Assembly: GCA_009777275.1 (NCBI GenBank)
Contig: WRME01000001.1
Span: forward strand, 1-43,576
Origin: Oscillospiraceae bacterium
Lineage (GTDB): Bacteria; Bacillota; Clostridia; Oscillospirales; Ruminococcaceae
Direction: 5' to 3'
DNA length: 43,576 nucleotides
The notes under the pieces are model-generated. The model was not told the origin of the DNA and ran no database searches. It saw nothing but the letters and a program-made list of their open reading frames with translations. The position numbers and the translations under genes are program-made. This document shows, piece by piece, positions 17,180 to 43,576 of the stretch (its first letter is position 1; each line of letters starts with the position of its first letter).

Positions 17180-17209
17180 TGTAGGGTACGCAACCCTGTG
17201 CGTACCGTG
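17180..17209. repeat. Solo H1 module (GTAG-GGTACGCA...TGCGTACC-GTG) between the GNAT gene and yabP
   Basis: tgtagggtacgcaaccctgtgcgtaccgtg. Same module as at 9381, 13022, 26962(rc), 31875(rc) and 37475. Confidence 0.8.
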
Positions 17210-26873: not shown

Positions 26874-27276
26874 TAATAATGCAGAATTAAGAATGCAGAA
26901 TGCAGAATGTTACAGTGGATAACCACGAAAAGCACGAAAAGACACGAAATGTTTATTAAGGGCGGTACGCACGGGGGTGCGTACCCTACTATAATTTCAA
27001 GCCCCCGTAACTGTCCATTGTACATTGTAAATTGTCAATTGTCCGTCACCCGCCGCTGCGGCGGCACTCTGCAGCAGACCACCCCGCCGCTGCGGCGGCA
27101 CCCCTCCCCAGAGGGGAATGGGGCTTACATACTATAATTTCCAATTCCCCTCTGGGGAGGGGTGGCAAACACTCGCAACAAAGTTGCGATAGTGTTTGAC
27201 GGGGTGGTCTGCTATAAGGAACATGGATTTAGGGGTTAGGTGGTAGGGGCGGCAATCTGCCGCCCGTGGTTATTGC
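26874..27276. repeat. Mosaic repeat locus (about 400 bp) between wzt and manC
   Basis: Order: GCAGAAT array 26880-26909; CACGAAA array(rc) 26921-26961; H1(rc) 26962-26989; spacer plus heptamer array 26990-27043; H4 x2 at 27047-27066 and 27078-27104; CCCCTC-ccca-GAGGGG 27101-27116; H6 27147-27162; H7 27169-27212; H2 27243-27276. Confidence 0.85.
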
Positions 27277-27286
27277 TACTTTAATT

Positions 27287-28522
27287 TTACACATCCCACC
27301 TATGATTTATCGAGACTATTCCCGTTTCTTTGGTGCTGTTGTTTACCGTGAGTTTGAGGGCATCGCAGAGGTAGTCGTAATCACGGCCTATCTTTGATGA
27401 GCAGGAGACATCGAATAAATATGTTCCCTCTAACAGATTGAAGGATTCTATCGTGAAGGTCACGGTTCCGGATTTTTTTTGCAGATCCGGCTGCAGCTCT
27501 TCCGCAAAGGTGTCTATCCCGTATACATGAACTCCGTCCGATCTCTTTATGTTTATACCGAAGACAAGGGAATCCACATCATCGTTTATGGTATAATCGC
27601 AGATTATATTCACCCCGTCACGAGTGTGGATATTACTCGCCTCGGCTCCTGTGCTATCGGTCATCCTAACCCCGCTCAGCTTTACCTCTCCGCTTCCTCG
27701 GCGGTTCTCTTGTTCGGGAGAATCCGCATCGGACGGTTGGGGTTGTTTTTTTGCCTGCTCATTATTACTCGGCTCTTCTGTGGGATTGTCATATGTGTCG
27801 GACATAAAGTTGAGATATTTTTCGGTAACATATGTCGATTTACCGTCCTCAACCATCATACCGTCTTTAAACCATATGGTTCTTTCGCAGATCCGCTGAA
27901 TACTATTCAGATCGTGGGAAACCAAAACTATCGTTACACCCTGTTTTTTCATCTCATAGAGCCGCTCAAAGCATTTACGCTGAAAGTTTGCATCGCCCAC
28001 AGCCAGTATCTCATCAATGAGCAGTATATCAGGGTCAACACTGATGGCAACTGCGAAAGCAAGACGCATATACATTCCGGACGAATATGTTCTCACGGCA
28101 TTGTCGATAAACTCACCCAGCTCGGAAAACTCTATGATTCCTGCGATTTTGCTCTCGATTTCACTCCTGCTCATGCCGAATATAGAGGCATTTGTATAGA
28201 TGTTCTCTCTTCCGGTCATGTCGTGGTGGAATCCTGCCCCAAGTTCTATAAGGCTTGAAACTCTGCCGTCTATCTTGACCGTTCCTGATGTTGGATACAT
28301 TATCCTGGTCAGGAGTTTGAGCAGGGTGCTTTTGCCCGAACCGTTCTGCCCGATAAGACCCACAGTCTCACCCTTTTGGATGGTCAGGTTTACATCTCTG
28401 AGCGCCCAAAAATCCTCATGGGTGTTTCTCCTCCAGTGGATGACCTTATCCTTGAGGGAGGCCGGCTTGTCCTTGTATATCTTAAACTTTTTTGAAACGC
28501 CTTCTACATTTATAACCTGCAT
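27287..28522 (-). CDS. Polysaccharide/teichoic-acid export ABC ATPase (Wzt/TagH type) with C-terminal glycan-binding-like domain
   Basis: Walker A GQNGSGKST; signature YSSGMYMRLAF; Walker B ILLIDE. ~140-aa beta-rich C-terminal extension (Wzt_C-like). Confidence 0.85.
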   Translation of the reverse strand: MQVINVEGVSKKFKIYKDKPASLKDKVIHWRRNTHEDFWALRDVNLTIQKGETVGLIGQNGSGKSTLLKLLTRIMYPTSGTVKIDGRVSSLIELGAGFHHDMTGRENIYTNASIFGMSRSEIESKIAGIIEFSELGEFIDNAVRTYSSGMYMRLAFAVAISVDPDILLIDEILAVGDANFQRKCFERLYEMKKQGVTIVLVSHDLNSIQRICERTIWFKDGMMVEDGKSTYVTEKYLNFMSDTYDNPTEEPSNNEQAKKQPQPSDADSPEQENRRGSGEVKLSGVRMTDSTGAEASNIHTRDGVNIICDYTINDDVDSLVFGINIKRSDGVHVYGIDTFAEELQPDLQKKSGTVTFTIESFNLLEGTYLFDVSCSSKIGRDYDYLCDALKLTVNNSTKETGIVSINHRWDV

Positions 28523-28528
28523 ATACCA

Positions 28529-29593
28529 TCATTCCTTTGCCGTAAATTTCTTTATTAGACCGCTCAGCTGCCGCTCTATCGATGATTCTTTGAATACCTC
28601 TATCCGCTCATACTGCTTCTGCACAACGCTGTCACGCATGGATTTGTCGTGTATAAGCGAATATGCTATCTCTGCGATGACCGACGGCTCTGTTGTTTCG
28701 AGAAGAACCCCCGCATCTCCCATGGTATACCCGACTGCGGCCTTATCGAGGGCGATCACGGGCAGACCGAAGTTCATCGCCTCAAGCAAGGGGATACAGA
28801 ATCCCTCATGCTCGCTCATGCAGAGGAAGACCTTTGCGGCGCGGTAATAGGAATAGAGGTCACTCTCAGAGACCTTGCCTGTGAAAAAAACACTGCTGCC
28901 CAGCGACAGATCCGATACCTTTTTCCGCAGCATTGCGGAATAGGAGGGGCTTACCACAGATGCCCCGACAAATATCAGTTTGGCATCGGGGTTTATGTTT
29001 TTATGATAGTAGTCAAAAACATCGATTATGTTTTCATGCTTTTTGTTGGGAACAACCCGCCCGACAAAGAGGAATGTATCAGATCTTTCGAGAGATTTTA
29101 CTATCCCGTCTCTGACGGGGGTGCCGTTTATGGCATCAAAGTCTATCATTATCGGGAGAACATCGGCATCCTTTGCTCCTAATGATAACAGATCCGCCTT
29201 ATTATACTCAGAATCGGCAAGAAAGCAATCAAAGGCGGGAATCGCCTTTTGCAGCTGCAGAATCCCTTTTTGACAAAAGCTGTACATCTCGCTCTGTCCT
29301 GCAAAAAACTCTGCGGGCGTGATGTTGTGATAGACCAGCGCCTTTCTGCCTGCCAATCGGATAGCCCTGTTGATTATAGTCGATTTCCCGGCAAAATGTA
29401 TCAGCAGTATATCCTGCGGCGATGTCTTTATCCTGCTGAAACTCGATACCCTGTCTGTCAGTTCAGGGTGGATATACCTGCTGTAGACAGCGGCATCATA
29501 ACCCATCTTAATGAGCAGATTGTGCTTGTTTATAATATCTCTGCCGACGCCGTCGCCATAATCGACCGCCTCGCATATCTGTATTATTCTCAT
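28529..29593 (-). CDS. Glycosyltransferase family 4 (GT-B)
   Basis: FVGRVVPNKK and C-terminal SEHEGFCIPLLEAMNFGLPVIA (E-x7-E region). Confidence 0.8.
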   Translation of the reverse strand: MRIIQICEAVDYGDGVGRDIINKHNLLIKMGYDAAVYSRYIHPELTDRVSSFSRIKTSPQDILLIHFAGKSTIINRAIRLAGRKALVYHNITPAEFFAGQSEMYSFCQKGILQLQKAIPAFDCFLADSEYNKADLLSLGAKDADVLPIMIDFDAINGTPVRDGIVKSLERSDTFLFVGRVVPNKKHENIIDVFDYYHKNINPDAKLIFVGASVVSPSYSAMLRKKVSDLSLGSSVFFTGKVSESDLYSYYRAAKVFLCMSEHEGFCIPLLEAMNFGLPVIALDKAAVGYTMGDAGVLLETTEPSVIAEIAYSLIHDKSMRDSVVQKQYERIEVFKESSIERQLSGLIKKFTAKE

Positions 29594-29955
29594 GTGTTTT
29601 GATTCTCCATATTAATACGATCTATCTCTGACATCATCAGGGCCGTGTGAGCAAGAATCTCGCTTGTCATATCAGAAACAGCCCTGTTATATTCCACCTG
29701 CTGATGGGTATAGTGTTTTATCAATTTGTTGATTACCCTCTTAAAAAATCTCCCCGACACCCCGAAAGGCACAATGTTTGTGACGGCATTCTGCGACAGA
29801 ACGGTATATTGGGCAAAGAGCCTTTGGTAGCTCTCGCCCAGAGCCGACTGCGATCGGCTCTTGTCTGCGGGTGATTTTGCTCGGTCGGCGATATTCTGCT
29901 CAATGCTCCGGGCCATTTTGCGGGTTAGATCAACATCTCTGTTTACAGTATACAT
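29590..29955 (-). CDS. Hypothetical coiled-coil protein, translationally coupled to the GT4 gene
   Basis: 121-aa ORF with ATGA overlap onto the GT4 start. Weak SD. No motif recognised. Confidence 0.45.
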   Translation of the reverse strand: MYTVNRDVDLTRKMARSIEQNIADRAKSPADKSRSQSALGESYQRLFAQYTVLSQNAVTNIVPFGVSGRFFKRVINKLIKHYTHQQVEYNRAVSDMTSEILAHTALMMSEIDRINMENQNT

Positions 29956-29961
29956 TCTTTT

Positions 29962-30759
29962 TTATATTTCCTCTACAAAATATTTTTGCAGCTTGCTGAA
30001 CAGCACCCCGCCTATTAGCAGGATAACAACGGCAAAGACAGCCGAATATGAAAGCCAGCTAAAATCGGGAGGATTTCCTCTCAGCAATATTTCTCTGAAT
30101 GACATAACGATAGGGGCAACGGGATTCATCATCATCACAAGACGAATCTTGGACGACATTTCGGTCTGTACAGACAACTCGTACAACACCGGAGTTAGAA
30201 AAAACCATCCCATGATTAGTATATTAACAATATGCTCAAGATCCCGCAGATAAACATTCAGAGCTGAAAACAGAAAGCAGAACCCCAAAACCATCATAAA
30301 TAGTATGAGCAGAACCAGCGGGAAGTAGAGCAGATTCAGATTGAAGGAAGTGCCTGTAATCAATAGCGAGGGGATCAGGATAGCCAGGCTGAAGATGTAG
30401 TTCATCAGGTTGCTGACCGCTCCGGACAGCGGAAGAATCATTCGGGGGAAGTATATCTTTTTGAGAAGACCGCCGCCCGCCGTTATGCAGGATGTGCATC
30501 CCGTCAGCGAACTTGAGAAGAATATCCAGGGGAGCATGGCTACAAACATAAACATGAGATAGCTCTCGTTAGGGTCGGCCGAACCGATGCGATGTATCTT
30601 TGAAAAGACAAAATAATAGACAAACATCATTAACAGCGGGTTTAAGAATGTCCACAAAAACCCTAGAACCGAACCCCTGTAACGGGTGCTGAGGTCTTTT
30701 TTGACAAGACTGTACAGCATCACCCTATAGTTATATAGCTCTTTTATCGTATTTATCAT
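29962..30759 (-). CDS. ABC-2 type polysaccharide export permease (Wzm/TagG type)
   Basis: KKDLSTRYRGSVLGFLWTFLNPLLMM plus 6 TM segments. GGAGGA SD favours ATG 30759, which has an ATGA overlap with the epimerase stop, over TTG 30771. Confidence 0.85.
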   Translation of the reverse strand: MINTIKELYNYRVMLYSLVKKDLSTRYRGSVLGFLWTFLNPLLMMFVYYFVFSKIHRIGSADPNESYLMFMFVAMLPWIFFSSSLTGCTSCITAGGGLLKKIYFPRMILPLSGAVSNLMNYIFSLAILIPSLLITGTSFNLNLLYFPLVLLILFMMVLGFCFLFSALNVYLRDLEHIVNILIMGWFFLTPVLYELSVQTEMSSKIRLVMMMNPVAPIVMSFREILLRGNPPDFSWLSYSAVFAVVILLIGGVLFSKLQKYFVEEI

Positions 30760-31682
30760 CTGTTCCTCCAATATTCTAACACCGATTGCAGTGAATCCCG
30801 CAGATCTGTTTCAGGTTTCCAGCCTGTACATTCAGTTATTTTTGTTATATCCGCCTCTATATGAGGATTGTCGGACGGTCTCATTCTCTTTGGATCCTGC
30901 ACAACCTCTATGTCAACCGCCGCCATAGACAGCAGTATATCGAGTATGCTTTGTATGCTTACCGCCGTTCCGCTGCCGACATTGTATATCTCACCTTTTT
31001 TGCCATGTTCAGACAATGCCCGGTATGCCCTGACAACATCGCGAACATCGGAAAAATCGCGGAATGCGCTGAGGTTGCCTACCGATATTACAGGAGGAAT
31101 CCGCCCTGCCTCTATATCTGCTATCTGTTTGCAGAAATCGGGGACGACAAACCCCGATGCCTGTCCTGCTCCAATGCTGTTGAAGGAGCGGGTCATAACT
31201 ATATCCATCCCGAAAGCCTCTGCAAACATACAGCCCGTCATGGTTTGTGACGCTTTGCTGACTGCATAGGGATTGCAGGGAGCAAGGATGGTCTTCTCGG
31301 TAATGGGGACGGCATTCCTGTCTACCCTGCCGTATTCCTCTCCCGAACCTATGAGCAGAACCCTGCTGTCAAGACCGAGTTCCCTTATTTTGCTCAGCAG
31401 ATTGACCGTTCCCTCACAGTTTACCCTGTATGTAAAGTTAATATCATTCCAAGACAGCCCCACAGAGCTTTGAGCGGCAAGATGGTAAACAACATCAGGT
31501 TTTGTCTCGAGCAGTGTCCTCTCGATACTGTCGGTATCAAGAAGATCGAGGATATACGAATCGCCCTGTTCCCATTTTTCATGCGGGAGACGAGCGGCAA
31601 AGACGGCCCTGCCGCTATCTGCAAGCAGTTTGTACAGATACCTCCCGACAAACCCCGGAGCCCCCGTGATCAACGATTTCAA
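30756..31682 (-). CDS. NAD-dependent epimerase/dehydratase (SDR; GDP-sugar reductase/epimerase-like)
   Basis: ITGAPGFVGRYL Rossmann motif and YAVSK catalytic Y-x3-K. TTG start. Confidence 0.8.
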   Translation of the reverse strand: MKSLITGAPGFVGRYLYKLLADSGRAVFAARLPHEKWEQGDSYILDLLDTDSIERTLLETKPDVVYHLAAQSSVGLSWNDINFTYRVNCEGTVNLLSKIRELGLDSRVLLIGSGEEYGRVDRNAVPITEKTILAPCNPYAVSKASQTMTGCMFAEAFGMDIVMTRSFNSIGAGQASGFVVPDFCKQIADIEAGRIPPVISVGNLSAFRDFSDVRDVVRAYRALSEHGKKGEIYNVGSGTAVSIQSILDILLSMAAVDIEVVQDPKRMRPSDNPHIEADITKITECTGWKPETDLRDSLQSVLEYWRNR

Positions 31683-31760: not shown

Positions 31761-32157
31761 TGTAACTATTTTGTAACTATTTGGTTTTGGGATGACCGCC
31801 GCCCTCTCCGTCACGCCACGGCGTGACACCTCTCCCAAAGGGAGAGGCAAGAAGACACACAGGGTTTATGACGGGCGGTACGCACGGGGGTGCGTACCCT
31901 ACAACGTGATAACCACGGGCGGCAGATTGCCGCCCCTACCACTACAATTGACAATTTACAATGTACAATTGACAATTATTGTAAATGTAAATTTGCTGGC
32001 GAAAATAGGGTTAGATTTCTATAATTTCAAGCCCCCGTAACTGTCCATTGTTCATTGTAAATTGTCAATTGGCATCATTCCCCTCTGGGGAGGGGTGGCA
32101 AACACTCGCAACAAAGTTGCGATAGTGTTTGACGGGGTGGTCTGCCTCGAAATACTC
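31761..32157. repeat. Mosaic repeat locus (about 400 bp) between the epimerase gene and DUF1015
   Basis: Order: tgtaactattt x2 at 31761-31782; H3-like left arm plus GTCACGC-cacg-GCGTGAC 31789-31827; H8 31830-31846; H1(rc) 31875-31902; H2(rc) 31909-31940; heptamer array(rc) 31943-31977; spacer; heptamer array 32039-32071; H6 32080-32095; H7 32102-32145. Confidence 0.85.
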
Positions 32158-32158: not shown

Positions 32159-33454
32159 TCACACTATCTTATTCATAACAAGTCCTGTTATGATTTTGGG
32201 GTAAAAATATGTGCTTTTTTGCGGCATTTTTTCTCCTGCGGCGGCAACGTCTCTTATCTGCCATACCTTTGTCGGGTTGAGCAGGAAGCAGCAATCGGCA
32301 TTACCGCCGTCTACGGCCTCAAGTGCGGCAGACATACTGCGGGTGTATCTCAGATTGGTCTGTGCGGCCATGTTTTCCTCGTCTATGCCAAACGCTTTTT
32401 CCAATGCCACCGAATGTAACACAGACACATCAAGACTGCGATAGGCATCGCTTGCATCGGGGAAGATCTCTTTCATGGCGTCTTTGTTCTTGAGGGTGAG
32501 GGTGTGGAACAGAGGTGTTCCACGCTCATCCTTGCTATAGATAACAAATGCCTTTTCGCCTTGTTTGTCAAGGCTCTCTATAGCGGATACGGCCGAATCA
32601 AGATTGCTTTGGGGGTTAATATCAAAATCAGCCGAGAGTTTTTTCAGCGTGTCTGCTAAGCTAAACTCTTCCAAGCTATGGATTATGCGATGGGTGGGCA
32701 ACACAACAAGCTCATCGTTGTCTATATCGGCAAGTATCATCATAACATAGTTTCCGGGATGGGTCTCATCATCGGAAAAGCCGAACTCGACAAGATATGT
32801 GCGGTATCGCATGGCCGTTTCGTAACGGTGGTGGCCATCGGCTATATAGAGCTTTTTATCGGCAAACTGATCAACCAATTGGTCTATAACGGTCTGATTC
32901 TCACATTTCCACAGCTTGTGGGTAACGGCCTCTTTGTCGGTAAACTCATATATAGGTTCAGAATCGGTCTCGGCATTTATGCTTTTGGCTATACTTCCGC
33001 TAGGATCCGAATAGAGAGAATATATCTGGCTGAAATTGCAGCCTGTAGCGTGCATAAGATTATATCTGTCCGCCTTTGCCTTAGAGAGTGTTTCCTCATG
33101 CGGGAGTATTATACCTTTGTGAAACTCTTCAAGCCCCACAAGCGTTACAATTCCTTTTAGTTGCTTCTTCTGTCCCTCAAACTCAAACTCCTGCCCATAG
33201 ATATAGATACCCGGGGTATCGTCTATAGCCAGCACTCCCTTGCCGAGATATTCATCCAGTGTTTCTCCTGCTTTTTCATAGCGGTTTTCTCCGGCGGGAA
33301 GTTCGAGCCGCACTATATTATACTCGTTTGCGTCTATATAACCCGCGCGCTGTTCCTCGCTGATAATGTCGTAAGGCGGGCAGGTTAATGTCGAGATCTC
33401 TCCTGCCTTTGCGGTATCATACCTCATCGCCCTAAATGCTTTTATTCTTGCCAT
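32159..33454 (-). CDS. DUF1015 family protein
   Basis: MARIKAFRAMRY...LTCPPYDIIS and YIADGHHRYETA patterns. AGGAG SD. Confidence 0.8.
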   Translation of the reverse strand: MARIKAFRAMRYDTAKAGEISTLTCPPYDIISEEQRAGYIDANEYNIVRLELPAGENRYEKAGETLDEYLGKGVLAIDDTPGIYIYGQEFEFEGQKKQLKGIVTLVGLEEFHKGIILPHEETLSKAKADRYNLMHATGCNFSQIYSLYSDPSGSIAKSINAETDSEPIYEFTDKEAVTHKLWKCENQTVIDQLVDQFADKKLYIADGHHRYETAMRYRTYLVEFGFSDDETHPGNYVMMILADIDNDELVVLPTHRIIHSLEEFSLADTLKKLSADFDINPQSNLDSAVSAIESLDKQGEKAFVIYSKDERGTPLFHTLTLKNKDAMKEIFPDASDAYRSLDVSVLHSVALEKAFGIDEENMAAQTNLRYTRSMSAALEAVDGGNADCCFLLNPTKVWQIRDVAAAGEKMPQKSTYFYPKIITGLVMNKIV

Positions 33455-33751
33455 ACCATCACTCCTAGTAAATAATAATACTTATTTTATCACAGATGTT
33501 TTGTTATTGCAATAAAAATCACACTTTTGTCAATTTAACCAACGAAAGACCGTCTTTATGCCCCGGTTTTATAATATTAGGCAAAATACCTGTCATTTTA
33601 TATAAATGAACGGCAAAAAGTTTGTTAAATAAAACACTGTTATTTCTCATTAAAATCTGTTATATTATTATATAGGGACTGCCTGCTGTTTGGATGCGAT
33701 CGGAACACAGGCGCCGTATAAAAATTGTATTTTATTAAGGAGGCTTTACTT

Positions 33752-34897
33752 ATGGCAAATGTTTCACTAAAGAGTATCTATAAAAAGTATCCGGGCGGTG
33801 TAATTGCGGTTTCAGATTTTAATCTCGAAATAGCGCACAAGGATTTTATTATCCTGGTCGGACCTTCCGGCTGCGGCAAAACCACCACGCTCCGCATGAT
33901 AGCAGGTCTTGAGGAGATCACCAGCGGAGAAATATTTATAGGCACAAAACTGGTCAACGATGTTGCGCCTAAAGACAGAGACATCGCTATGGTTTTCCAA
34001 AACTATGCTCTCTATCCCCACATGACTGTTTTTGACAATATGGCATTTGGTCTGAAGATAAGAAAAACACCCAAAGATCAAATCAAAAAGCTGGTTGACG
34101 AAGCGGCTGAAATTCTCGACATAACCCATCTTCTCGATCGGCGTCCCAAAGCGCTTTCGGGAGGACAGCGTCAGCGTGTAGCGTTAGGACGCGCGATTGT
34201 CCGCAATCCGCAGGTCTTCCTGCTTGACGAACCTCTCTCCAACCTTGATGCAAAACTGCGCGCTCAGATGAGGACCGAGCTTTCAAAGCTGCATCAGAGA
34301 CTTGGAACAACCTTTATCTATGTTACCCATGACCAGGTTGAGGCTATGACGATGGGTACCCGTATCGTTGTTATGGACAACGGATTTATCCAGCAGGTTG
34401 ATACCCCGCATACCCTTTATATGAAACCGGGCAACAAGTTTGTTGCGGGATTCCTTGGCTCACCTCAGATGAATTTTATAGATGCCTTTGTCAGAAGCAA
34501 TGAGGGTAAATACTTTGTAGAGTTCGGCTCTGAGCAGACAAAGACATCCAGAGGCAAAAAGTATCTGATCGAACTGCCCGATAGCAAAAACTCTAAAGAA
34601 TGTCTCAAACCGTATGTTGATAAGGCTGTAGTTGTCGGGATACGTCCCGAAAACCTGCATGATGAAGAGATGTTCCTGTCGGCCGCTAAAAAAGACAGCA
34701 TCATAGAATGTAAGGTTGATGTTACAGAGCTTATGGGAGCCGAGACATATCTCTATCTCGACTGTGAGGGTATTCCTCTTACCGCCCGTGTTTCACCCCG
34801 CTCGACAACCGCCGCCGGTGATGTTATAGAGGTTGCCGTTGATACAAGCAAACTACATCTGTTTGATAAAGAAACAGAAGTTACCATAACAAACTAA
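33752..34897 (+). CDS. msmX: Sugar ABC transporter ATP-binding protein (MsmX/MalK/UgpC type)
   Basis: AAGGAGG at 33737-33743 then ATG 33752. GPSGCGKTT, LSGGQRQRVALGRA, FLLDEPLSNLD. C-terminal TOBE-like domain. Confidence 0.9.
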   Translation: MANVSLKSIYKKYPGGVIAVSDFNLEIAHKDFIILVGPSGCGKTTTLRMIAGLEEITSGEIFIGTKLVNDVAPKDRDIAMVFQNYALYPHMTVFDNMAFGLKIRKTPKDQIKKLVDEAAEILDITHLLDRRPKALSGGQRQRVALGRAIVRNPQVFLLDEPLSNLDAKLRAQMRTELSKLHQRLGTTFIYVTHDQVEAMTMGTRIVVMDNGFIQQVDTPHTLYMKPGNKFVAGFLGSPQMNFIDAFVRSNEGKYFVEFGSEQTKTSRGKKYLIELPDSKNSKECLKPYVDKAVVVGIRPENLHDEEMFLSAAKKDSIIECKVDVTELMGAETYLYLDCEGIPLTARVSPRSTTAAGDVIEVAVDTSKLHLFDKETEVTITN

Positions 34898-34965
34898 TAA
34901 TATTTTGCATATCCCCGATAGCTTTCGGCAATAATAACCTCATACTTATGTAATAAGAGAGGTGA

Positions 34966-35112
34966 ATGAAATTGCCGGACAAAGGAAAAAACAACAAGAG
35001 CAAATCAGGGGATCGCAAGGATAAGCAAAACAACAGGAACAACAACGCTAATAATAACAACGAACAACGGAACAACGCAGACAACAAGAAAGACGATGCA
35101 AACTGCAGATAA
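34966..35112 (+). CDS. Possible 48-aa highly hydrophilic N/K/D-rich small protein
   Basis: Not in the ORF track (under 60 aa). GAGAGGTG directly upstream of ATG 34966. Translation MKLPDKGKNNKSKSGDRKDKQNNRNNNANNNNEQRNNADNKKDDANCR. Followed by a 10-bp-stem hairpin at 35133-35159. Confidence 0.35.
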   Translation: MKLPDKGKNNKSKSGDRKDKQNNRNNNANNNNEQRNNADNKKDDANCR

Positions 35113-35132
35113 CACTGTACGAGAATAACAAT

Positions 35133-35168
35133 ACGGGCGGGAGTAAATTTCCCGCCCGTATGTTCGTT
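35133..35168 (+). terminator. Hairpin terminator after the 48-aa ORF
   Basis: ACGGGCGGGA (35133-35142), loop gtaaatt, TCCCGCCCGT (35150-35159), then a T-rich atgttcgtt. Confidence 0.55.
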
Positions 35169-35173
35169 ATATA

Positions 35174-35202
35174 TTGACATATCCGGCGAGATATACTAAA
35201 CT
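35174..35202 (+). promoter_or_regulatory. Candidate sigma-A promoter of the AAA+/nuclease gene
   Basis: TTGACA 35174-35179, 17-nt spacer, TAAACT 35197-35202. Confidence 0.35.
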
Positions 35203-35222
35203 GTAGTTGGAGGGGATGTCTA

Positions 35223-36518
35223 ATGCTCAGAAAAATTACCGCTAAGCTGAACCAATGGAACGAATCTTTATACAGAAAACCTCTCATCCTGCAAGGAGCG
35301 AGACAGGTTGGCAAAACATACACAGTTTTAGAATTTGCCCGGGAACGGTATGATAATGTCGCATATATTAATTTTGAATTTGACAGGTCTGCTATGGATA
35401 TATTTGCAAACAGCCTTGATCCAAAGGAGATCGTTCCTAAGATAGAGATTTTCACCAAACAAACGATAACCAAAGGCAGAACGCTTATATTCTTAGACGA
35501 AATACAAAAATGCCCCCCTGCCCTTACATCGTTAAAATACTTTGACGAATTTGCGTCAGAGTATCATATTATTGCAGCGGGAAGTCTGCTGGGGGTTGCC
35601 GTAAGCCGAGAGGAGTTTTCATTTCCGGTAGGCAAGGTCAATCGCTTGACGCTCTATCCCATGGATTTTGAGGAGTTTCTGATTGCGGTCGGCAAACCCG
35701 AACTCTCTGATATGATTAGGGATTGTTTTGCGGCAAATGCTCCTATGGATACTGTCTATCACAATGCGCTTTTGGAGCTGTACAGACAGTATTTAGTGGT
35801 CGGGGGTATGCCCGATTGTGTATCCAAGTTTGTAGAGACGGGTGACAACACCCTTATAAGAGCAACGCAAAGATTGATTTTAGAAGATTATTTAGACGAT
35901 ATGAGCAAATATAACAGCAAGAACGAGATAAAGAAAACAAGGCTTGTATACAGCAGTGTTACCGCTCAGCTTTCTAAAAAGAACACACGCTTTCAGTACA
36001 AACTAATAAAATCGGGAGGCAGAGCATCAGAGTTTGAAAACGCTATCGAGTGGCTGATTCTGTCGGGTATCGTTACTCGGGTAAACGCTCTCGAAACAAT
36101 AAAAAAACCTCTCGACAACTACAAGAACATCGACAGCTTTAAAATATTTATCTCTGATGTCGGTCTTTTGTGCGCTAAAAACAATCTGCCCGCCAATGAT
36201 GTGTTGTGGGATTCAAGCGAACTCAATGATTTTAAAGGCGGAATGACCGAAAACTATGTATGTAATCAGTTGGTCTCAAGCGGACATGAGTGCTACACAT
36301 GGCATAGCAATGGCGAAGCCGAAATGGATTTTGTAATACAGCGGGAGGGAACGGTTATACCTATAGAGGTAAAATCCGCCGATAACAGCAAGGCGAAAAG
36401 CCTGAAGACATATATAAACAAATTCAAACCCGAATATGCCATAAAGGTTTCGTCCAACAATTTCGGCTATGAAGATGGAATAAAAACCATTCCGTTATAT
36501 GCCGCTTTTTGTATATAA
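35223..36518 (+). CDS. AAA+ ATPase (AAA_14-like) fused to a DUF4143 / PD-(D/E)xK-like C-terminal domain
   Basis: Walker A GARQVGKT; Walker B LIFLDEIQ. C-terminal EAEMDFVIQREGTVIPIEVKS is a D...E-x-K nuclease-fold motif. Confidence 0.8.
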   Translation: MLRKITAKLNQWNESLYRKPLILQGARQVGKTYTVLEFARERYDNVAYINFEFDRSAMDIFANSLDPKEIVPKIEIFTKQTITKGRTLIFLDEIQKCPPALTSLKYFDEFASEYHIIAAGSLLGVAVSREEFSFPVGKVNRLTLYPMDFEEFLIAVGKPELSDMIRDCFAANAPMDTVYHNALLELYRQYLVVGGMPDCVSKFVETGDNTLIRATQRLILEDYLDDMSKYNSKNEIKKTRLVYSSVTAQLSKKNTRFQYKLIKSGGRASEFENAIEWLILSGIVTRVNALETIKKPLDNYKNIDSFKIFISDVGLLCAKNNLPANDVLWDSSELNDFKGGMTENYVCNQLVSSGHECYTWHSNGEAEMDFVIQREGTVIPIEVKSADNSKAKSLKTYINKFKPEYAIKVSSNNFGYEDGIKTIPLYAAFCI

Positions 36519-36535
36519 CAGGGGAGGAATGTCCA

Positions 36536-37273
36536 ATGCTCTATGCGGCAATAATGGCGGGCGGCAGGGGGGAACGGCTGGGCGGAGATCTGCCTAAACA
36601 GTTTCTGCCCGTTTGCAGCAGGCCCGTTATAATCCGAACCCTCGATGTATTTATGGGTCTCGGAGTTTTCGATTGTATCTATATCGGCATGGCTCCCGAT
36701 TGGATCGAACACTGCACCCGTCTCCTGAAAGAACACGGTTACTGTGATGGCAGCATAAAACTTGTTGCAGGCGGACAGAGCCGTCATCTCACGATGGTTA
36801 ATATCCTGCGTGAAATCAACAACACAAAGAACGATATTATCGTTACCCACGATGCCGCCCGTCCCTTTGTCAGCGGCAGGATGATACTCGACAGCATCAG
36901 TGCCGCCAAACAACATGGCGCCTGCGGAGCGTATATAGAATCTACCGACAGTCTTGCCCTGTCGCAAGACGGGGACTCTATCGGGCAATGTCTCCAACGC
37001 AATGGGATTTATTTAGCGCAAACCCCTCAGAGCTTTCGTCTCGATCTGTTGTTAGAGTGCATAGACAAACTCAGCCCGTCTCAAGCGGAACAGCTCACAG
37101 ACGCCTGTTCGGTCTTTAGATTATGCGGCCTGCCTGTAAAGATAATCCCCGGAGAATCAAGCAATCTCAAGATAACCACAAAAAGCGACATGGAATATGC
37201 AGAGTATGTGGCAACGACACGGAAAAACACCCGCCCTTGCGAGGGCACCCCGACGGCAATTGACAATGGATAG
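36536..37273 (+). CDS. IspD/TarI-family cytidylyltransferase (by memory closer to TarI, ribitol-5-P cytidylyltransferase)
   Basis: GGGGAGGA SD then ATG 36536. AIMAGGRGERLGGDLPKQFL, VTHDAARPF, AQTPQSF, SNLKITT. The last ~17 codons (RKNTRPCEGTPTAIDNG) are encoded by H4 and heptamer repeat modules. Confidence 0.75.
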   Translation: MLYAAIMAGGRGERLGGDLPKQFLPVCSRPVIIRTLDVFMGLGVFDCIYIGMAPDWIEHCTRLLKEHGYCDGSIKLVAGGQSRHLTMVNILREINNTKNDIIVTHDAARPFVSGRMILDSISAAKQHGACGAYIESTDSLALSQDGDSIGQCLQRNGIYLAQTPQSFRLDLLLECIDKLSPSQAEQLTDACSVFRLCGLPVKIIPGESSNLKITTKSDMEYAEYVATTRKNTRPCEGTPTAIDNG

Positions 37274-37505
37274 TTGACAATTGACAATTATTGTAACTAT
37301 AAATTCGCTGACAAAAATAGAGTTAGATTCCTATAATTTCAAGCCCCCGTAACTGTCCATTGTTCATTGTAAATTGTCAATTGTCATCGGGGTGCCGCCG
37401 CAGCGGCGGGTGTTTTTCCCGTAGGGGCGGCAATCTGCCGCCCGTGGTTCTCACGGATTGCGGGTGTTTTTTCCTGTAGGGTACGCACACCTGTGCGTAC
37501 CGTGG
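37222..37505. repeat. Mosaic repeat locus overlapping the tarI/ispD 3' end and preceding ymdB
   Basis: Order: H4 variant (GCCCT-tgcg-AGGGC) 37222-37251; heptamer array(rc) 37256-37293; spacer; heptamer array 37351-37385; H4(rc, terminator-like GGGTGTTTTT) 37389-37420; H2 37421-37449; cacggattgcgggtgtttttt 37452-37472; H1 37475-37505. Confidence 0.85.
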
Positions 37506-37566
37506 ATACAAAAACGCCGTGTTTATGCCAACGAATGACCGAAAGCAAACAGAATGGAGAGATAAC

Positions 37567-38334
37567 ATGAAAATTTTATTTATAGGTGATGTTGTGGGGT
37601 CGGGCGGGTGCGAATATGTTCGGAACAGACTGCCCTCTCTTAAAAAGGAGCATGACATAGCGGTTACTATTGCCAACGGTGAAAACTCTGCTATAGGCAA
37701 CGGAATCCTGCCGCAGTCGGCGCGGCATCTGTTCGACAGCGGGGTGGATATTATCACAACCGGCAACCATGTCTTCAAACGCAAGGAAATATACCCCTAT
37801 CTCGATGAAACTCAGGGCATCATACGTCCCGCTAACATCTCGGCAAAATGCCCGGGCAGGGGTCTGTTTGTACTCGATTGCGGCAGGGATAAGGTATGCG
37901 TAATAAACCTCATAGGTCAGGTTTATATGGAGCCTGTCGATAACCCTTTTTGCAAGATGGACAGGCTGTTGCAAAAAAACGAAAATAAGATAACAATAGT
38001 TGATTTTCACGCAGAGGCGACAAGCGAAAAGGGCGCAATGGCGCACTATCTTGACGGAAGAGTGTCGGCCGTTATAGGAACCCATACCCATGTGCAGACC
38101 TGTGACGAGCAGATTCTGCCCAGGGGGACGGGGTTTATCACCGATGCCGGAATGACAGGGCCGCAGCTATCGGTGCTGGGTGTCACCCCCGAATCTATCA
38201 TCAGCAAACTCACTACCGGAATGCCCGCAAAATTCGAGACAAGCGAAAACCCCTGTTTTTTAAACGGGGTAATACTGGATATAGACTCATCAAGCGGCAA
38301 GTGTGTGGGGATAAAGAGGGTGATGGATAATTGA
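37567..38334 (+). CDS. ymdB: YmdB-type metallophosphoesterase (TIGR00282 family)
   Basis: MKILFIGDVVG, NGENSA, GNH, VDFHAEATSEK, GTHTHVQT motifs. GGAGA SD before ATG 37567. The stop codon lies in a repeat module. Confidence 0.85.
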   Translation: MKILFIGDVVGSGGCEYVRNRLPSLKKEHDIAVTIANGENSAIGNGILPQSARHLFDSGVDIITTGNHVFKRKEIYPYLDETQGIIRPANISAKCPGRGLFVLDCGRDKVCVINLIGQVYMEPVDNPFCKMDRLLQKNENKITIVDFHAEATSEKGAMAHYLDGRVSAVIGTHTHVQTCDEQILPRGTGFITDAGMTGPQLSVLGVTPESIISKLTTGMPAKFETSENPCFLNGVILDIDSSSGKCVGIKRVMDN

Positions 38335-38471
38335 CAGTTACGGGGGGTAACCACGAAATACACTAAAACCACGAAAAGGGAAAAACACCCGCCGCTGCGG
38401 CGGCACCCTCTTTACGAAAGAGGGCAGGGGCTAATAATCTCAAGTCCCTGTAACTGTACATTGTCAATCGG
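38329..38471. repeat. Mosaic repeat locus between ymdB and the HD gene; contains both stop codons
   Basis: Order: aattgacagttacgggggg 38329-38347; CACGAAA array(rc) 38349-38379; H4 38381-38408; H5 38406-38424; variant spacer plus heptamers 38425-38471. Confidence 0.8.
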
Positions 38472-39204
38472 TATTTTTGTATCTTAATGAGTAGCGTGTT
38501 TTGGAATGCTCCCTATAAATATCACTCAGTATTCTACCGATGCTTTCCAGCACTAAACGATGGTCTGTTGTCATTTTGACCTTGAATATTGTTTCGATAT
38601 TGTTATCAATAAAAGTGATTTGACTGCGTATTCGACGTACAAAATCAGGAAGTGTTTCCGCATCACCGAGGTTAGACAGTATGTCCAACAATTTGAGAAA
38701 CAATGCTTTTGGACTCATCTCGGACAGTTTGTAGTTGGTATATTCGGACTTGTCTATCCACTGCGTTTCTCCGTTCGGTAACGACTTTGGATATTTCCCT
38801 TCTGCATTTTTTGCCTCGTTAGTCAGTTCAACAACAATAGTAGTAACCGAATATCCGAAAGTTTTCTTCATCCACTCAATTGTGGTAATCTGGTCTTCGC
38901 CGCGCTTGACGGCATCTTCTAAGTAGTCGTGCAATACCGCCGCCGCATACATAACATCATCACCATGTGAAAATTGATAGTGCATACATAGTCGGTAAAT
39001 CTCAGTACAGTGGTCTTCGTAAGGCAAACCGGTGGTTTTACGCACTTTTCCCTCATATGCTCTTTTTGCTACCGCTTTTGCCATACGCAAGAGCGGAAAT
39101 TGTTTTGCTGATGTGCCGGCCACAAGATTAGTTTCACAATCGTAGTAGATGGTGTCTGATTCATAGCAATTTCGATTATTAAAGTTTATAACGGTTCTTT
39201 CCAA
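38464..39204 (-). CDS. HD-domain hydrolase with RelA/SpoT-type HDxxED motif (small alarmone hydrolase-like)
   Basis: GLPYEDHCTEIYRL...AAAVLHDYLEDA matches the (p)ppGpp-hydrolase HD_4 signature. AAAGGAGG lies 8 nt before TTG 39204; the ORF-track start is 39249. AT-rich compared with neighbours. Confidence 0.7.
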   Translation of the reverse strand: MERTVINFNNRNCYESDTIYYDCETNLVAGTSAKQFPLLRMAKAVAKRAYEGKVRKTTGLPYEDHCTEIYRLCMHYQFSHGDDVMYAAAVLHDYLEDAVKRGEDQITTIEWMKKTFGYSVTTIVVELTNEAKNAEGKYPKSLPNGETQWIDKSEYTNYKLSEMSPKALFLKLLDILSNLGDAETLPDFVRRIRSQITFIDNNIETIFKVKMTTDHRLVLESIGRILSDIYREHSKTRYSLRYKNTD

Positions 39205-39243
39205 AAGTAATGCCTCCTTTGTAAAATTAAATTCACTTGAAAA

Positions 39244-39346
39244 CCGCAATTCCTGCGGGATTAGGCTTTAAGAAATAGGACTTGAAATTTCAATCCCATG
39301 CCCTCTTTCGTAAAGAGGGTGCCCTCGCAAGGGCGGGTGTTTTTTT
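39244..39346. repeat. Mosaic repeat locus upstream of the HD gene, with H5+H4 inverted relative to 38381-38430
   Basis: Order: ccgcaattcctgcgg 39244-39258; cttgaaatttcaatcc 39281-39296; H5(rc) 39301-39319; H4 variant(rc) 39318-39346. Confidence 0.8.
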
Positions 39347-39421
39347 GGCCAATCAACCCTTGACCCCGCAAAGATTTTATGATATATTATAGTTACAAAT
39401 TCGGAAAGGACGGTATGCCGG

Positions 39422-39826
39422 ATGAAAAAAGCCATCGTGGTTTGTACGGGTAATATATGCCGCAGTCCTATGGGAGAGATTATTCTCGCTAAGAGGGCGG
39501 AGGGTCTTGGGTGGATTGTAGAATCCCGCGGTGTTCAGGCTGATGTCGGCTCTGAGATGACCCGCTATTCACGCATTGCCCTTGAGGAGCTGGGATATGA
39601 CGTTCCCCCCCATTCGGCAAAACAGCTGACCCATGAGGATATAACAGGGTCAGATCTGCTTATCGTAATGACGACAGGGCATATAAAAGCAATAGCAGCT
39701 ATGGTTCCGCAGGCCAGGGACAAGTGTCTGTTGCTTGGGGTTCCCGATCCGTGGGGTTATGATATAGAGACATACAGAGAATGCCGTGATTCTATCCTTG
39801 AGAATATAAACAAAATAGAGCTATGA
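39422..39826 (+). CDS. Low-molecular-weight protein tyrosine/arginine phosphatase (YwlE-like)
   Basis: VCTGNICRSPMGE is the CX5R(S) P-loop. DPWG general-acid region. 134 aa. Confidence 0.85.
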   Translation: MKKAIVVCTGNICRSPMGEIILAKRAEGLGWIVESRGVQADVGSEMTRYSRIALEELGYDVPPHSAKQLTHEDITGSDLLIVMTTGHIKAIAAMVPQARDKCLLLGVPDPWGYDIETYRECRDSILENINKIEL

Positions 39827-41337: not shown

Positions 41338-42189
41338 ATGCCAAAACAATTTTTATCCCCACGCAATGATTTAATCTTCAAACTTCTATTCGGAGACGAA
41401 CGCAGTAAAGAAATTCTAACCGATTTTCTAAAGTCCGTACTGCTGATTCCCCACGAAGATTACGACACGATAACCATCCTTGACCCGCACCTTTTACCTG
41501 ACTACAGGGACGGTAAACTGGGCATAATTGACGTGAAGTTGCAGACAAAATCGGGCAAGATAATCAATATCGAGATTCAGGTCGAACACATACCGCAGAT
41601 GAGAGAACGGGTGATTTTCTACGATGCTAAGATGGTCACAGAGCAGATCGGTGCGAGCGAGAACTACGAGAAAATCAAGAAAGTCATCAGCATCATAATA
41701 ACCAACCACGAGTTTATAGAAAAAAGTCCGAAATACCATCACAGATTCACTCTTTACGATGCCGACAATCAGGTCGAATTTACCGACACAATCGAGATTA
41801 ACACGCTGGAATTGCCCAAGATCCCCGGCGATTCAGACGGCACACCATTGTGGGACTGGATGAAGTTTCTCGATGCGAAAAATGAGGAGGATTTGGACAT
41901 GGCAGCAGTAGCGAACACGCAGGTCAACAACGCCGTAATACGGCTAAAAGAGCTGTCCGCAGACGAGCGGACGAGGATGTTATACGAATCCCGTATAAAG
42001 ATGGAACGGGACATTTATTCGATAACAAAGGGGAAAGAGGATGCAGCCGAGAAGCGGGGTATGGAGCGGGGAATGGAGAGAGGCAAAATCACCATTGCCC
42101 GCAACGCACTTAGGATGAACATTCCTGTTGCCGACATAGCCAAGCTAACCAACCTTACCCCCGAAGAGATCGAATCCTTACTCCCATAA
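41338..42189 (+). CDS. Rpn-family recombination-promoting nuclease / putative transposase (PD-(D/E)xK, TIGR01784-like)
   Basis: LSPRNDLIFKLLFGDE N-terminus. GIIDVKLQ...INIEIQV nuclease core. AAAGGAG SD. Confidence 0.8.
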   Translation: MPKQFLSPRNDLIFKLLFGDERSKEILTDFLKSVLLIPHEDYDTITILDPHLLPDYRDGKLGIIDVKLQTKSGKIINIEIQVEHIPQMRERVIFYDAKMVTEQIGASENYEKIKKVISIIITNHEFIEKSPKYHHRFTLYDADNQVEFTDTIEINTLELPKIPGDSDGTPLWDWMKFLDAKNEEDLDMAAVANTQVNNAVIRLKELSADERTRMLYESRIKMERDIYSITKGKEDAAEKRGMERGMERGKITIARNALRMNIPVADIAKLTNLTPEEIESLLP

Positions 42190-42383: not shown

Positions 42384-42426
42384 TAGTTTAATAACGTTTA
42401 ACAACAATCGAGCGGAGGGTTTGTTT

Positions 42427-43416
42427 ATGACAATAAGAGAGAAAACCGAGATGATAGAGGTTTCAACTCTGAGTAAATACGCTGCATTGTCGATTAAAAC
42501 AAAGGGACGCACAAGGCTTGAGAGCGAATGTCCCATGCGTGCCGCTTTTCAGCGGGATCGGGACAGGATTATACACTCCAACGCATTTCGCAGGCTCAAG
42601 CATAAAACCCAGGTCTTTATATCACCCGAGAAGGATCACTACCGCACACGTCTGACCCATACGCTTGAGGTTGCTCAGATCGCACGGACTATCGCTCGTG
42701 GATTGCGGCTCAACGAAGACCTTGCCGAAGCCATTGCGTTGGGACACGATTTAGGACACACCCCTTTCGGTCACGCGGGCGAAAGGGCGCTGGACAAAAT
42801 ATGCAGGCATGGATTCAGGCACAATCTGCAGAGTGTGCGTGTTGTAGAGTTTCTCGAAAAAGAGGGTAAAGGGCTGAATCTCACCTATGAGGTCAAAAAC
42901 GGCATCGAGAACCATGTGGACGGAAATGCCGCCACCCTTGAGGGGCAGTTGGTGGAGGTCTCGGACAAGATCGCATTTGTCAACCATGATATAGAGGACG
43001 CCATACGAGGCGGAATAATCACAAGCAAAGACATTCCGTATAATTGCGACTACTTTCTCGGCAAGACCAAAAGCCAACGTATACACACCGCCGTAAACTC
43101 GATAATACAGGGCAGCGGTGAGAAGATACAGATGCACCCCGAAATCAAAAAGGCGCATGACCAGCTGCTTGATTTTATGTATAAGAAGGTCTATATAGAT
43201 TCCGCCGCCAAGACAGAGGAAAACAAGGTAGAGGGATTGATGAGAAGTGTGTATGAATATTATCTCGCCAAGCCGCAAGGTCTGCCGCCATTTTATGCGG
43301 AGATAGCCGAAAAAGAGGACATCGACAGAGCGGTCTGCGACTACATCGCCGGAATGAGCGACATATATCTTGTCAAACTGCACAATCGGCTATTCGTACC
43401 GCAGGCGTGGGAATAA
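42427..43416 (+). CDS. dgt: dGTPase-like dNTP triphosphohydrolase (HD superfamily)
   Basis: FQRDRDRIIHSNAFRRLKHKTQVF, HYRTRLTHTLEVAQIAR, GHDLGHTPFGHAGE. GGAGGG SD 7 nt before ATG 42427. Confidence 0.85.
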   Translation: MTIREKTEMIEVSTLSKYAALSIKTKGRTRLESECPMRAAFQRDRDRIIHSNAFRRLKHKTQVFISPEKDHYRTRLTHTLEVAQIARTIARGLRLNEDLAEAIALGHDLGHTPFGHAGERALDKICRHGFRHNLQSVRVVEFLEKEGKGLNLTYEVKNGIENHVDGNAATLEGQLVEVSDKIAFVNHDIEDAIRGGIITSKDIPYNCDYFLGKTKSQRIHTAVNSIIQGSGEKIQMHPEIKKAHDQLLDFMYKKVYIDSAAKTEENKVEGLMRSVYEYYLAKPQGLPPFYAEIAEKEDIDRAVCDYIAGMSDIYLVKLHNRLFVPQAWE

Positions 43417-43576
43417 CCACCCCGCCGCTGCGGCGGCACCCCTCCCCCGAGGGGGATGGGGGGTTGCATACTATAATTTCCAATTCCCCTCTGGGGGGGG
43501 GGGGGGAACACTCGCAACAAAATTGCGGTAGTGTTTGACGGGGGGGGCTGGCTCGAAACACCCCCTCAGTCCGCGG
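43414..43576. repeat. Mosaic repeat locus at the window end, same composite as 27078-27212
   Basis: H4 at 43416-43442, starting at the last base of the dgt stop codon; CCCCTC-cccc-GAGGGG; catactataatttccaattcccctct; G14 (43493-43506); H7 43508-43545; H9-like gaaacaccccctcagtccgcgg to the end. Confidence 0.8.

Follow-up and report, generated by a model that had tools for sequence, protein, structure and literature searches.

A 43,576-nt stretch of DNA from an uncultured termite-gut Oscillospiraceae bacterium (contig WRME01000001.1 of assembly GCA_009777275.1, positions 1-43,576; hereafter the window) was analysed around a single gene on the minus strand, which lies between ymdB and a low-molecular-weight protein tyrosine phosphatase gene and is bracketed by two inverted repeat arms. 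This gene, referred to here as the HD gene, is predicted from its sequence and from a structural model to encode a RelA/SpoT-type stand-alone small alarmone hydrolase (SAH). Considered jointly, the evidence supports with moderate confidence an account in which the gene, a SAH of a rare subfamily, arrived horizontally from low-GC phage or other mobile DNA and came to lie between two independent copies of a repeat resembling repetitive extragenic palindromic (REP) sequences and bacterial interspersed mosaic elements (BIMEs).

A predicted stand-alone alarmone hydrolase

The original prediction had described the product as alarmone-hydrolase-like on account of an LHDYLED motif, and this description was upheld. 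The motif was located at residues 91-97 of the 246-amino-acid product, for which a public database gives an identical gene call, and the strong Shine-Dalgarno sequence and TTG start claimed for the gene were also found, 8 nt apart. The sole Pfam domain in the protein was HD_4 (PF13328), which scored above its cut-off (32.1 bits, gathering score 27.2, E = 1.1e-7), without synthetase or regulatory C-terminal domains. Given this assignment, hidden Markov model searching (HD_4 and RelA_SpoT) placed the gene in an alarmone HD family and not in a non-alarmone one. A local match of the hydrolase region to TIGR00691 (spoT_relA, 1e-5) was also obtained, and the match to PHROG 990, a family of metal-dependent phosphohydrolases, was stronger than the Pfam match (6.7e-17). 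The best relatives in the PDB by sequence were Corynebacterium glutamicum RelH (7QOC), human MESH1 and Lmo0812. Residues R55, H65, H92, D93, E96, D97, D174 and N178 were invariant across 7-9 members of the family; these include the metal ligands and the catalytic acid/base residues of the enzyme class and align to the motifs of MESH1 and RelH.

Structural comparison was carried out with an AlphaFold model built from a 7-sequence alignment (pLDDT 87.5, pTM 0.85), an earlier model from a 5-sequence alignment (pLDDT 55.6) having been discarded. In a Foldseek search against the PDB, ranks 1-35 were all occupied by alarmone hydrolases (Mesh1, PaSAH, RelH, LlSAH, TtRel, SpoT, Aph1 and RelSeq), other HD families (YpgQ, PgpH) appearing only at E > 0.1, and in a viral structure library it was phage SAH-like proteins that ranked top. 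Like the described SAHs (PaSAH 6YVC, RelH 7QOC/7QOD, L. levettii SAH 7QOE and Mesh1 3NQW/3NR1), the HD protein has a single HD_4 domain, lacks a synthetase domain and carries all of the RK-x-x-G-x-PY-x-x-H, HDxxED and KLxDxxxN motifs, and its modelled all-helical core superposes on theirs with a target-normalised TM score of 0.64-0.74. It differs from them in its 16-23% identity and in being about 60 residues longer, with a predicted four-strand β extension of about 35 amino acids at the N-terminus (strands within residues 5-31) and a predicted β-hairpin insertion at residues 138-150. The last 14 residues (233-246) form a tail that is disordered in the model (pLDDT <50) and unconserved in homologs.

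Judged from these motifs and from the model, the HD protein would probably degrade (p)ppGpp and possibly (p)ppApp. The R55-K56-T57 segment resembles the guanine-contacting R-R/K-S of (p)ppGpp hydrolases, unlike the D-K-A of Aph1, and gives only a hint of a ppGpp-type substrate. Previous descriptions exist of orphan SAHs, of SAHs carried by phages and able to neutralise toxic synthetases, and of Aph enzymes specific for (p)ppApp (PMC7229694, PMC10083569, PMC9765508); Aph1 itself has a compact fold of eight helices, its specificity residues being D24/K25/A26 and R119, and Aph genes have been reported near cell-wall and translation genes and are sometimes prophage-borne (PMC10083569). The HD protein shares the stand-alone HD fold of Aph1 (7SMG) but matches it weakly in structure (E = 2.7e-3), has R55-K56-T57 in place of D24-K25-A26 and is longer even than classical SAHs, which speaks against an Aph1-type (p)ppApp-specific hydrolase.

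The absence of an alarmone synthetase partner from the window, as originally stated, was confirmed, no match to the RelA_SpoT synthetase domain (PF04607) being found among all 35 proteins. Furthermore, no toxSAS-type partner synthetase adjoined any HD homolog, the only candidate being a long RelA encoded two genes upstream of the homolog in one termite-gut locus (L004, below). With no PF04607 gene in the window or beside the homologs, a toxSAS-SAH type IV toxin-antitoxin module was rejected.

Rarity and probable origin of the gene

Only five clusters of the HD subfamily (at 90% identity) were found among 5.8 billion proteins, or seven with a profile, and five representatives scored below 1e-30 among 1.84 billion proteins. 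The subfamily is set apart by a gap in scores, from 1e-34 for its members to 1e-19 and weaker for ordinary SAHs of 170-190 amino acids, and most of its members trace to termite-gut samples. YmdB homologs number thousands, against about five for the HD protein, and the HD family is missing from almost all Oscillospiraceae; the nearest named relatives of both proteins come from Oscillospiraceae or Acutalibacteraceae metagenome-assembled genomes (MAGs).

The closest homolog (P0002, 67% identity) is encoded on a 4-kb contig of 35% GC (L008), where packed, co-directional small genes of unknown function are followed by a phage-type DNA methyltransferase gene (phrog_67, 1.5e-60). The other homologs occupy differing chromosomal contexts: P0003 (L001) lies between the genes for pyruvate:ferredoxin oxidoreductase and a phosphate-binding protein, P0004 (L004, a termite-gut MAG) in the order recJ-relA-metallo-β-lactamase-fold hydrolase-HD-radical SAM, and P0009 (L180, 36% identity) between murA and ftsQ-ftsZ. 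In L004 (4989-8825) the HD homolog is thus two genes downstream of a long RelA/SpoT gene, and in L180 (6678-11268), a contig from the same sample as L004, it is part of the murA/ftsQ-ftsZ cluster; these contexts may connect the enzyme functionally with the stringent response and with cell division. A scan of IMG/VR did not find the subfamily, only remote SAH-like genes of jumbo phages (30-33% identity). The HD gene resembles the phage SAHs (those of Salmonella phages PVP-SE1 and SSU5 and the jumbo-phage members of PHROG 990) in having no adjacent synthetase and in the phage-like setting of its nearest homolog, but differs from them in lying on a chromosome among housekeeping genes and in sharing at most 33% identity with any sequenced phage protein.

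The base composition of the gene was compared with that of its neighbours and of the 35 genes of the window. GC content at third codon positions (GC3) was 11-15 points lower in the HD gene than in its neighbours in the window (41 vs 52), in L004 (30 vs 45) and in L180 (38 vs 50), and equalled that of the contig on L008 (33 vs 33). It was therefore below that of the neighbours in three of the four chromosomal loci, the exception being L001, where the two were equal. The original prediction of an AT-rich cassette, with 32-42% GC in three 60-nt lines of the gene set against about 60% in one line of ymdB, was right in direction but overstated in size: the whole gene has 40.5% GC, ymdB 48.8% and the phosphatase gene 48.6%, the mean of the 35 genes being 45.5 ± 4.0% (sixth lowest, z = -1.3). 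GC3, at 41.3%, was the second lowest of the 35 (z = -1.8), and the codon-usage distance of the HD gene was the highest among window genes of at least 200 codons, yet not extreme.

Taken together, the differing contexts, the GC3 pattern and the PHROG 990 match are most economically read as repeated horizontal acquisition from phage-like DNA of low GC. On such comparisons, a foreign origin of the HD gene is plausible. The original prediction had presented the gene as horizontally acquired cargo that was captured or moved between repeat composites; the rarity and patchiness of the family, its varied contexts and the phage-like closest homolog are in line with the first part of that proposal, while repeat-driven capture is not supported, as set out in the next section.

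A second public assembly (L007) was found to match the window at 99.98% identity over 9.4 kb (window 41462 down to 32022), with an identical HD cassette in the same orientation. L007 departs from the window at about 32022, exactly at the repeat cluster 31852-32144 (L007 9441 onward), and beyond this point carries a HEPN/nucleotidyltransferase pair and genes for an AMP-binding enzyme, thioredoxin and ornithine carbamoyltransferase. The switch of partner is either a true rearrangement at the repeats or an assembly chimera.

It could be supposed that the HD gene is an old vertical resident, with its low GC arising from protein composition or low expression and its scattered positions from rearrangement of repeat-rich genomes. 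Consistent with this are the overall GC deviation of z = -1.3, which five other window genes equal or exceed in AT-richness, the host-like GC3 of the L001 homolog, and the make-up of the window itself, a patchwork of unrelated housekeeping genes between repeat clusters, at one of which L007 switches partner. Such residence would not, however, sit well with a family missing from almost all Oscillospiraceae and numbering about five against thousands for YmdB, with a GC3 below that of the neighbours in three independent genomes but equal to its surroundings on a phage-like contig, or with a closest homolog on that contig and not on a related chromosome. Vertical descent was consequently regarded as unlikely, and horizontal arrival is retained below.

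The bracketing repeats and their family

The inverted pair of about 50 bp reported to flank a single gene was confirmed: 38381-38430 and 39295-39344 are identical at 45 of 50 positions as reverse complements, and one real gene lies inside. The match extends to 67 nt (38381-38447 and 39278-39344; 57/67, 85%), the two arms being about 830 nt apart. Each arm consists of an A-run with CACCC and the hairpin modules H4, H5 and H6. Of the five mismatches over the 50 nt, four make up two compensatory pair changes in the stem of H4 (GCCGC-TGCG-GCGGC vs GCCCT-TGCG-AGGGC). The features of the locus are as follows.

37390-37420, minus strand: copy of H4a upstream of ymdB, 31/31 complementary to 38378-38408
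37519-38334, plus strand: ymdB (TIGR00282-type metallophosphoesterase; Pfam YmdB, 1.7e-104), convergent with the HD gene
38347-38376, plus strand: further repeat module GTAACCACGAAATACACTAAAACCACGAAA in the ymdB-HD intergenic cluster, inverted match to 13063-13092 (93%)
38381-38447, plus strand: left arm (A-run and CACCC, H4a, H5, degenerate H6), from repeat search and identity count
38391-38404, plus strand: left-arm H4a, GCCGC-TGCG-GCGGC
38406-38424, plus strand: left-arm H5, CCCTCTTT-ACGA-AAAGAGGG
about 38427-38447, plus strand: left-arm H6, a degenerate palindrome
38432-38486, plus strand: partial 'GTAACTGT..CATTGTCAAT' module, 67% to the reference copy, overlapping the HD stop codon (38464-38466) and last codons
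38464-39204, minus strand: HD gene, 246-amino-acid product, sole real gene between the arms, from open reading frame and translation
39212-39219, minus strand: Shine-Dalgarno sequence AAAGGAGG, 8 nt upstream of the TTG start (39204-39202), read from the sequence
39244-39258, minus strand: short hairpin CCGCA-GGAAT-TGCGG plus TTTT, placed between the HD Shine-Dalgarno sequence and the right arm, read from the sequence
39278-39344, minus strand: right arm, an inverted unit reading on the plus strand H6, H5, H4b, then CGGGTG and a T7 run
about 39278-39298, minus strand: right-arm H6
39301-39319, minus strand: right-arm H5
39321-39334, minus strand: right-arm H4b, GCCCT-TGCG-AGGGC on the minus strand
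39360-39388, plus strand: phosphatase promoter-like site (TTGACC, 17-nt spacer, TATATT, TG extension; 10/12 matches)
39422-39826, plus strand: low-molecular-weight protein tyrosine phosphatase gene (Pfam LMWPc, 2.4e-23), divergent from the HD gene

With its extra module at 38347-38376, the gap to the left of the HD gene holds a mosaic cluster rather than an isolated arm, and the location of the HD stop codon within a repeat module would explain the unconserved C-terminal tail of the protein. Modules related to 38347-38376 also occur in contig L139, described below.

The arms belong to a REP/BIME-like intergenic repeat family, made up of short hairpins present in high copy and in both orientations and gathered in mosaic clusters. 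The 19-mer of H5 was found at three sites in the window (0.01 expected) and the head AAAACACCCGCC at 11 (0.2 expected); there are three copies of the H4+H5 composite, and mosaic clusters of H4/H5 and other hairpin modules occupy about 10 of the roughly 20 intergenic gaps. The unit can be written as AAAACACCC-G[stem]-TGCG-[stem]C-ACCC-TCTTT-NNNN-AAAGAGGG-CA, and family sites lie at 133-197, 9695-9745, 12956-13018, 17075-17086, 37221-37250, 37390-37478, 38381-38424 and 39301-39344 of the window and in loci L094-L179. The exact 23-nt core of H5 was present in more than 86 termite-gut contigs, a minimum taken from the matches listed, and often at contig ends. Among the listed loci, a perfect hairpin directly followed 99 of 190 heads; these 99 hairpins show 24 distinct 5' arms, and 86 of them have a TGCG loop. 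H4 is thus a hypervariable but always paired stem with a near-fixed UGCG (UNCG-type) loop, and H5 an essentially invariant stem with a variable loop; the UNCG loops suggest selection at the RNA level. No Rfam family was matched at its gathering threshold in the whole window, the region itself giving only a sub-threshold match to engA (E = 0.5), and the H4+H5 repeats apparently constitute an undescribed structured family. A fixed orientation to genes, as for a pure terminator or leader, was considered and rejected, since only a weak bias was seen (upstream gene co-directional in 36 cases and opposite in 20, downstream gene in 30 and 27). Arranged by gene context, the repeat units of the listed loci fell into >M> (13), >M< (10), <M> (7) and <M< (7).

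The REPs and BIMEs of proteobacteria are GC-rich intergenic hairpins of high copy number that occur in both orientations and in mosaic clusters, and similar hairpin repeats double as terminators. Classical REPs also carry a GTAG(GG) head, the motif recognised by the IS200/IS605-like transposases known as RAYTs (REP-associated tyrosine transposases). The present family resembles them in its hairpins, intergenic sites, copy number, use of both orientations and mosaic clusters, and in breaking assemblies. It differs in its Oscillospiraceae host, in the pairing of a hypervariable stem and fixed UGCG loop (H4) with a fixed stem and variable loop (H5), in the lack of a RAYT in the window, where no RAYT-type or Y1 transposase was found among the proteins, and in having units inside operons and on a viral contig. 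The GTAGGG head is absent from H4 and H5 and present in other cluster modules: hairpin modules so headed, for example GTAGGGGCGGCAATCTGCCGCCC and GTAGGGTATGCACCCCTGTGCATACC, share the window clusters with H4/H5 and lie at 13134-13160, 27243-27269, 37421-37447, 13019-13050, 17177-17208, 37472-37503, 107-143 and 9296-9332.

On the viral contig (L182, IMGVR_UViG_3300006045_000471, 2500-2600), two H4 hairpins and an H5 stand between genes for a 407-amino-acid protease/scaffold-like and a 363-amino-acid capsid-like protein, immediately ahead of the start signals (ribosome-binding site and ATG) of the latter, from which it follows that the unit is present in DNA of phages or prophages too, and within operons. 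In L139, from a related termite-gut organism, a 55-nt inverted H4+H5 pair (6434-6488 and 7760-7814, 96%) encloses atpC and two small membrane-protein genes directly after atpG-atpD; one unit, oriented other than as a terminator, stands within the ATP synthase operon. Short palindromic elements of the order H4-H5...H5'-H4' (about 110-130 nt, with centres of 20-70 nt) were found in other contigs, for example L100, L144 and L164.

Brackets of the kind seen around the HD gene proved to be common. The housekeeping gene ymdB is itself enclosed by an inverted H4 pair (37390-37420 and 38378-38408, 31/31), and inverted pairs surround multigene blocks at 9711-12772 (41 nt, 88%), 27287-31682 (34 nt, 100%) and 32159-37273 (35 nt, 97%); inverted module pairs enclose essentially every block between repeat clusters in the window. 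As ymdB, the three multigene blocks and, in L139, atpC are likewise bracketed, the arrangement is not specific to a cassette and the inverted pair does not mark a mobile one. Nor are the arms sister copies: the third H4+H5 copy (12956-13018, about 25 kb away) matches the left arm at 94% and, from 12952, the right arm at 90%, against 85% between the arms. The likeness of the two arms goes far beyond chance, and their bracketing placement does not: the chance that two of three copies fall in adjacent gaps is about 0.28 (1 - C(18,3)/C(20,3)), or about 0.15 if they must also be inverted. No target-site duplication was found, the outer flanks (...ACGAAAAGGG/AAAAACACCC on the left and ...GATTGGCC/AAAAAAACACCC on the right, as reverse complement) sharing no direct repeat; no transposase or integrase lies between or beside the arms, the only transposase-like gene being a PDDEXK_2 gene 2 kb away; and no H4/H5 module was found within 16 kb of the HD homologs in L001, L004 and L008. 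The proposal that the gene was captured or moved between the two composites is therefore not supported, the arms being ordinary dispersed repeats.

These findings bear on a stronger version of the same proposal, in which the two arms of 50-67 nt would be the ends of a mobilisable composite, transposon-like or resembling a miniature inverted-repeat transposable element (MITE), that captured the hydrolase gene and was mobilised by an unseen transposase acting in trans. In its favour, the arms do exist as inverted copies with 85% identity along 67 nt, the stretch of low GC does not extend beyond them, head-to-head palindromic elements of like topology exist in L100, L144 and L164, and the presence of a unit on a viral contig means that units can travel. 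Against this stand inverted pairs of equal or better quality elsewhere, the closer relation of each arm to a third copy than to its partner, the different H4 variants in the two arms, the lack of flanking direct repeats and of a transposase, the homolog loci free of H4 and H5, and the appreciable chance of adjacent placement given above; a mobile composite was accordingly held to be very unlikely. In its single gene between inverted repeats the locus does resemble composite transposons, gene-carrying MITEs and integron cassettes, but it differs from all of them in lacking a target-site duplication, a transposase, an integrase and a direct-orientation attC-type site, in having arms that are not sister copies, and in the lack of a second such unit in the window or the homolog loci examined. 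A reading of the hairpins as integron attC sites or as a CRISPR array was likewise rejected, the pairs being inverted and not direct, with no R/L boxes and no regular spacing.

The arms might also render the interval invertible, recombination between them turning the HD gene round and exposing it to read-through from ymdB. The 67-nt inverted repeats are 830 nt apart, and a flipped gene would be co-directional with both neighbours; however, the same orientation was found in two independent assemblies at 99.98% identity, no invertase is encoded nearby and the arms are only 85% alike. Inversion at this locus is hardly to be expected.

Several points nevertheless weigh against the account favoured here, of a horizontally acquired SAH gene between two independent repeat copies. 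The deviation in GC is modest, several window genes being equally AT-rich, and the host-like GC3 of the L001 homolog implies long residence for some copies. No ymdB-phosphatase junction lacking the gene was seen, the nearest YmdB proteins being only 57-64% identical: the best match in a search of genome contigs was at 57% identity, with a phosphatase, ispD or HD gene near none of 80 loci, and the best non-self match in the 5.8-billion-protein search at 63-64%. A promoter scan revealed no convincing sigma-70-type promoter for the HD gene. The terminator-like sequences of the arms are matches to a consensus only, and the GGGTG spacer between their stems and T-runs is atypical. Finally, the head-to-head order H4-H5...H5'-H4', with the A-runs outward, matches that of the short palindromic elements, which would allow the gene to lie inside one former element. 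It is conceivable, though most unlikely, that arm, gene and arm form a gene-carrying derivative of these elements, delivering a phage-type alarmone hydrolase as counter-defence or immunity cargo. If so, the REP-like family would be able to pick up, move or flip whole genes between the chromosomes and phages of termite-gut Firmicutes.

Expression, possible function and significance

The ends of the window repeat one another in inverted form (12-104 and 43416-43508, 93 nt, 85%; also 1-46 and 43472-43517) and contain long C and G homopolymer runs, so that the contig evidently terminates in repeat clusters at both sides. At 321-9185 the window encodes a 2954-amino-acid protein whose sole recognisable domains are two CBM_X2 and one Ig-like (Big_3_5) domain, and which is probably a giant, carbohydrate-binding protein of the cell surface. 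Of all genes in the window, a hicB-like antitoxin gene at 13494-13847 is lowest in GC3 (33.9%) and deviates most in codon usage; it adjoins the large repeat cluster 12858-13195, and no hicA partner was present among open reading frames of at least 110 amino acids. Closer to the HD gene lie genes for an AAA_14/DUF4143 ATPase (35223-36518; candidate defence model PDC-S01, 7.5e-172), a PD-(D/E)XK 'transposase' family protein (41338-42189) and an HD/HD_assoc dGTPase (42421-43416; PADLOC dGTPase model, 1e-78), which give the neighbourhood a loosely defence-flavoured character, interleaved with housekeeping genes.

In the account favoured here, the HD gene would most likely have landed between ymdB and the phosphatase gene by transfer from a low-GC phage or other mobile DNA. 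The bracket around it would consist of two independent hairpin units, each with an A-run, CACCC, a variable-stem UGCG hairpin and a CCCUCUUU/AAAGAGGG hairpin, and able to occur in either orientation; any action of the arms would probably be a local one on RNA. The left arm presents, on the minus strand, two hairpins and then GGGTGTTTTT (GGGUGUUUUU) directly after the HD stop codon, and would supply the hairpin and U-run 3' end of the HD mRNA. A terminator scan returned terminator-like matches on the minus strand at 38403-38389 in the left arm and on the plus strand at 39320-39335 and 39324-39337 in the right arm. As these face outward in both arms, both may stop transcription leaving the interval. 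Read on the plus strand, the right arm would stop such transcripts before the phosphatase promoter-like site, which directly follows its T-run, the arm ending 15 nt before that site; read on the minus strand, it would form part of the HD 5' leader if transcription starts upstream of it. With no T-run terminator after ymdB before the right arm, read-through antisense to the HD gene is possible.

The enzyme itself would be a metal-dependent HD_4 hydrolase that, going by its conserved residues and modelled fold, removes the 3'-pyrophosphate from (p)ppGpp and possibly from (p)ppApp. Its physiological role could be the trimming of alarmone pools or protection against toxins that produce alarmones or pyrophosphorylate tRNA. 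A functional alternative, compatible with the origin proposed above, is that the HD protein acts as an immunity or antitoxin-type enzyme without a partner, or derives from a phage counter-defence gene that was domesticated, rather than being a means of tuning the stringent response. It would then detoxify the products of toxSAS, CapRel-like or Tas1/Apk2-like synthetases, whether delivered by competitors or activated by phages. Stand-alone phage SAHs neutralise all tested toxSAS (PMC7229694) and the phage-borne Aph1 is an immunity enzyme (PMC10083569); in addition, the nearest homolog lies in a phage-like context, the PHROG match is stronger than the Pfam match, and neighbouring proteins match the PDC-S01 and dGTPase models cited above. 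Conversely, neither the window nor the genes next to any homolog include a partner toxin, the HD protein has no PADLOC match, homologs lie near relA and in a cell-division cluster, which would fit housekeeping control of alarmones, and R55-K56-T57 is like the R-R/K-S of ppGpp hydrolases and not the D-K-A of Aph1. An immunity role is for these reasons considered possible but the less probable function.

The favoured account, of a horizontally acquired hydrolase gene between independent repeats, adds a rare and structurally embellished subfamily to the small alarmone hydrolases, and would provide a further example of a SAH gene that passes between chromosomes and phage-like DNA unaccompanied by a synthetase. 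It bears on the roles open to orphan SAHs, namely housekeeping, immunity against (p)ppApp- or tRNA-pyrophosphorylating toxins, and phage counter-defence. It also carries a lesson of method, as genes in a genome saturated with REP/BIME-like repeats will by default be flanked by an inverted pair, which is then no evidence that they were captured. Of greater interest, perhaps, is the repeat family, with its fixed UGCG loop on a hypervariable stem beside a fixed-stem hairpin, occurring in operons and on a viral contig.

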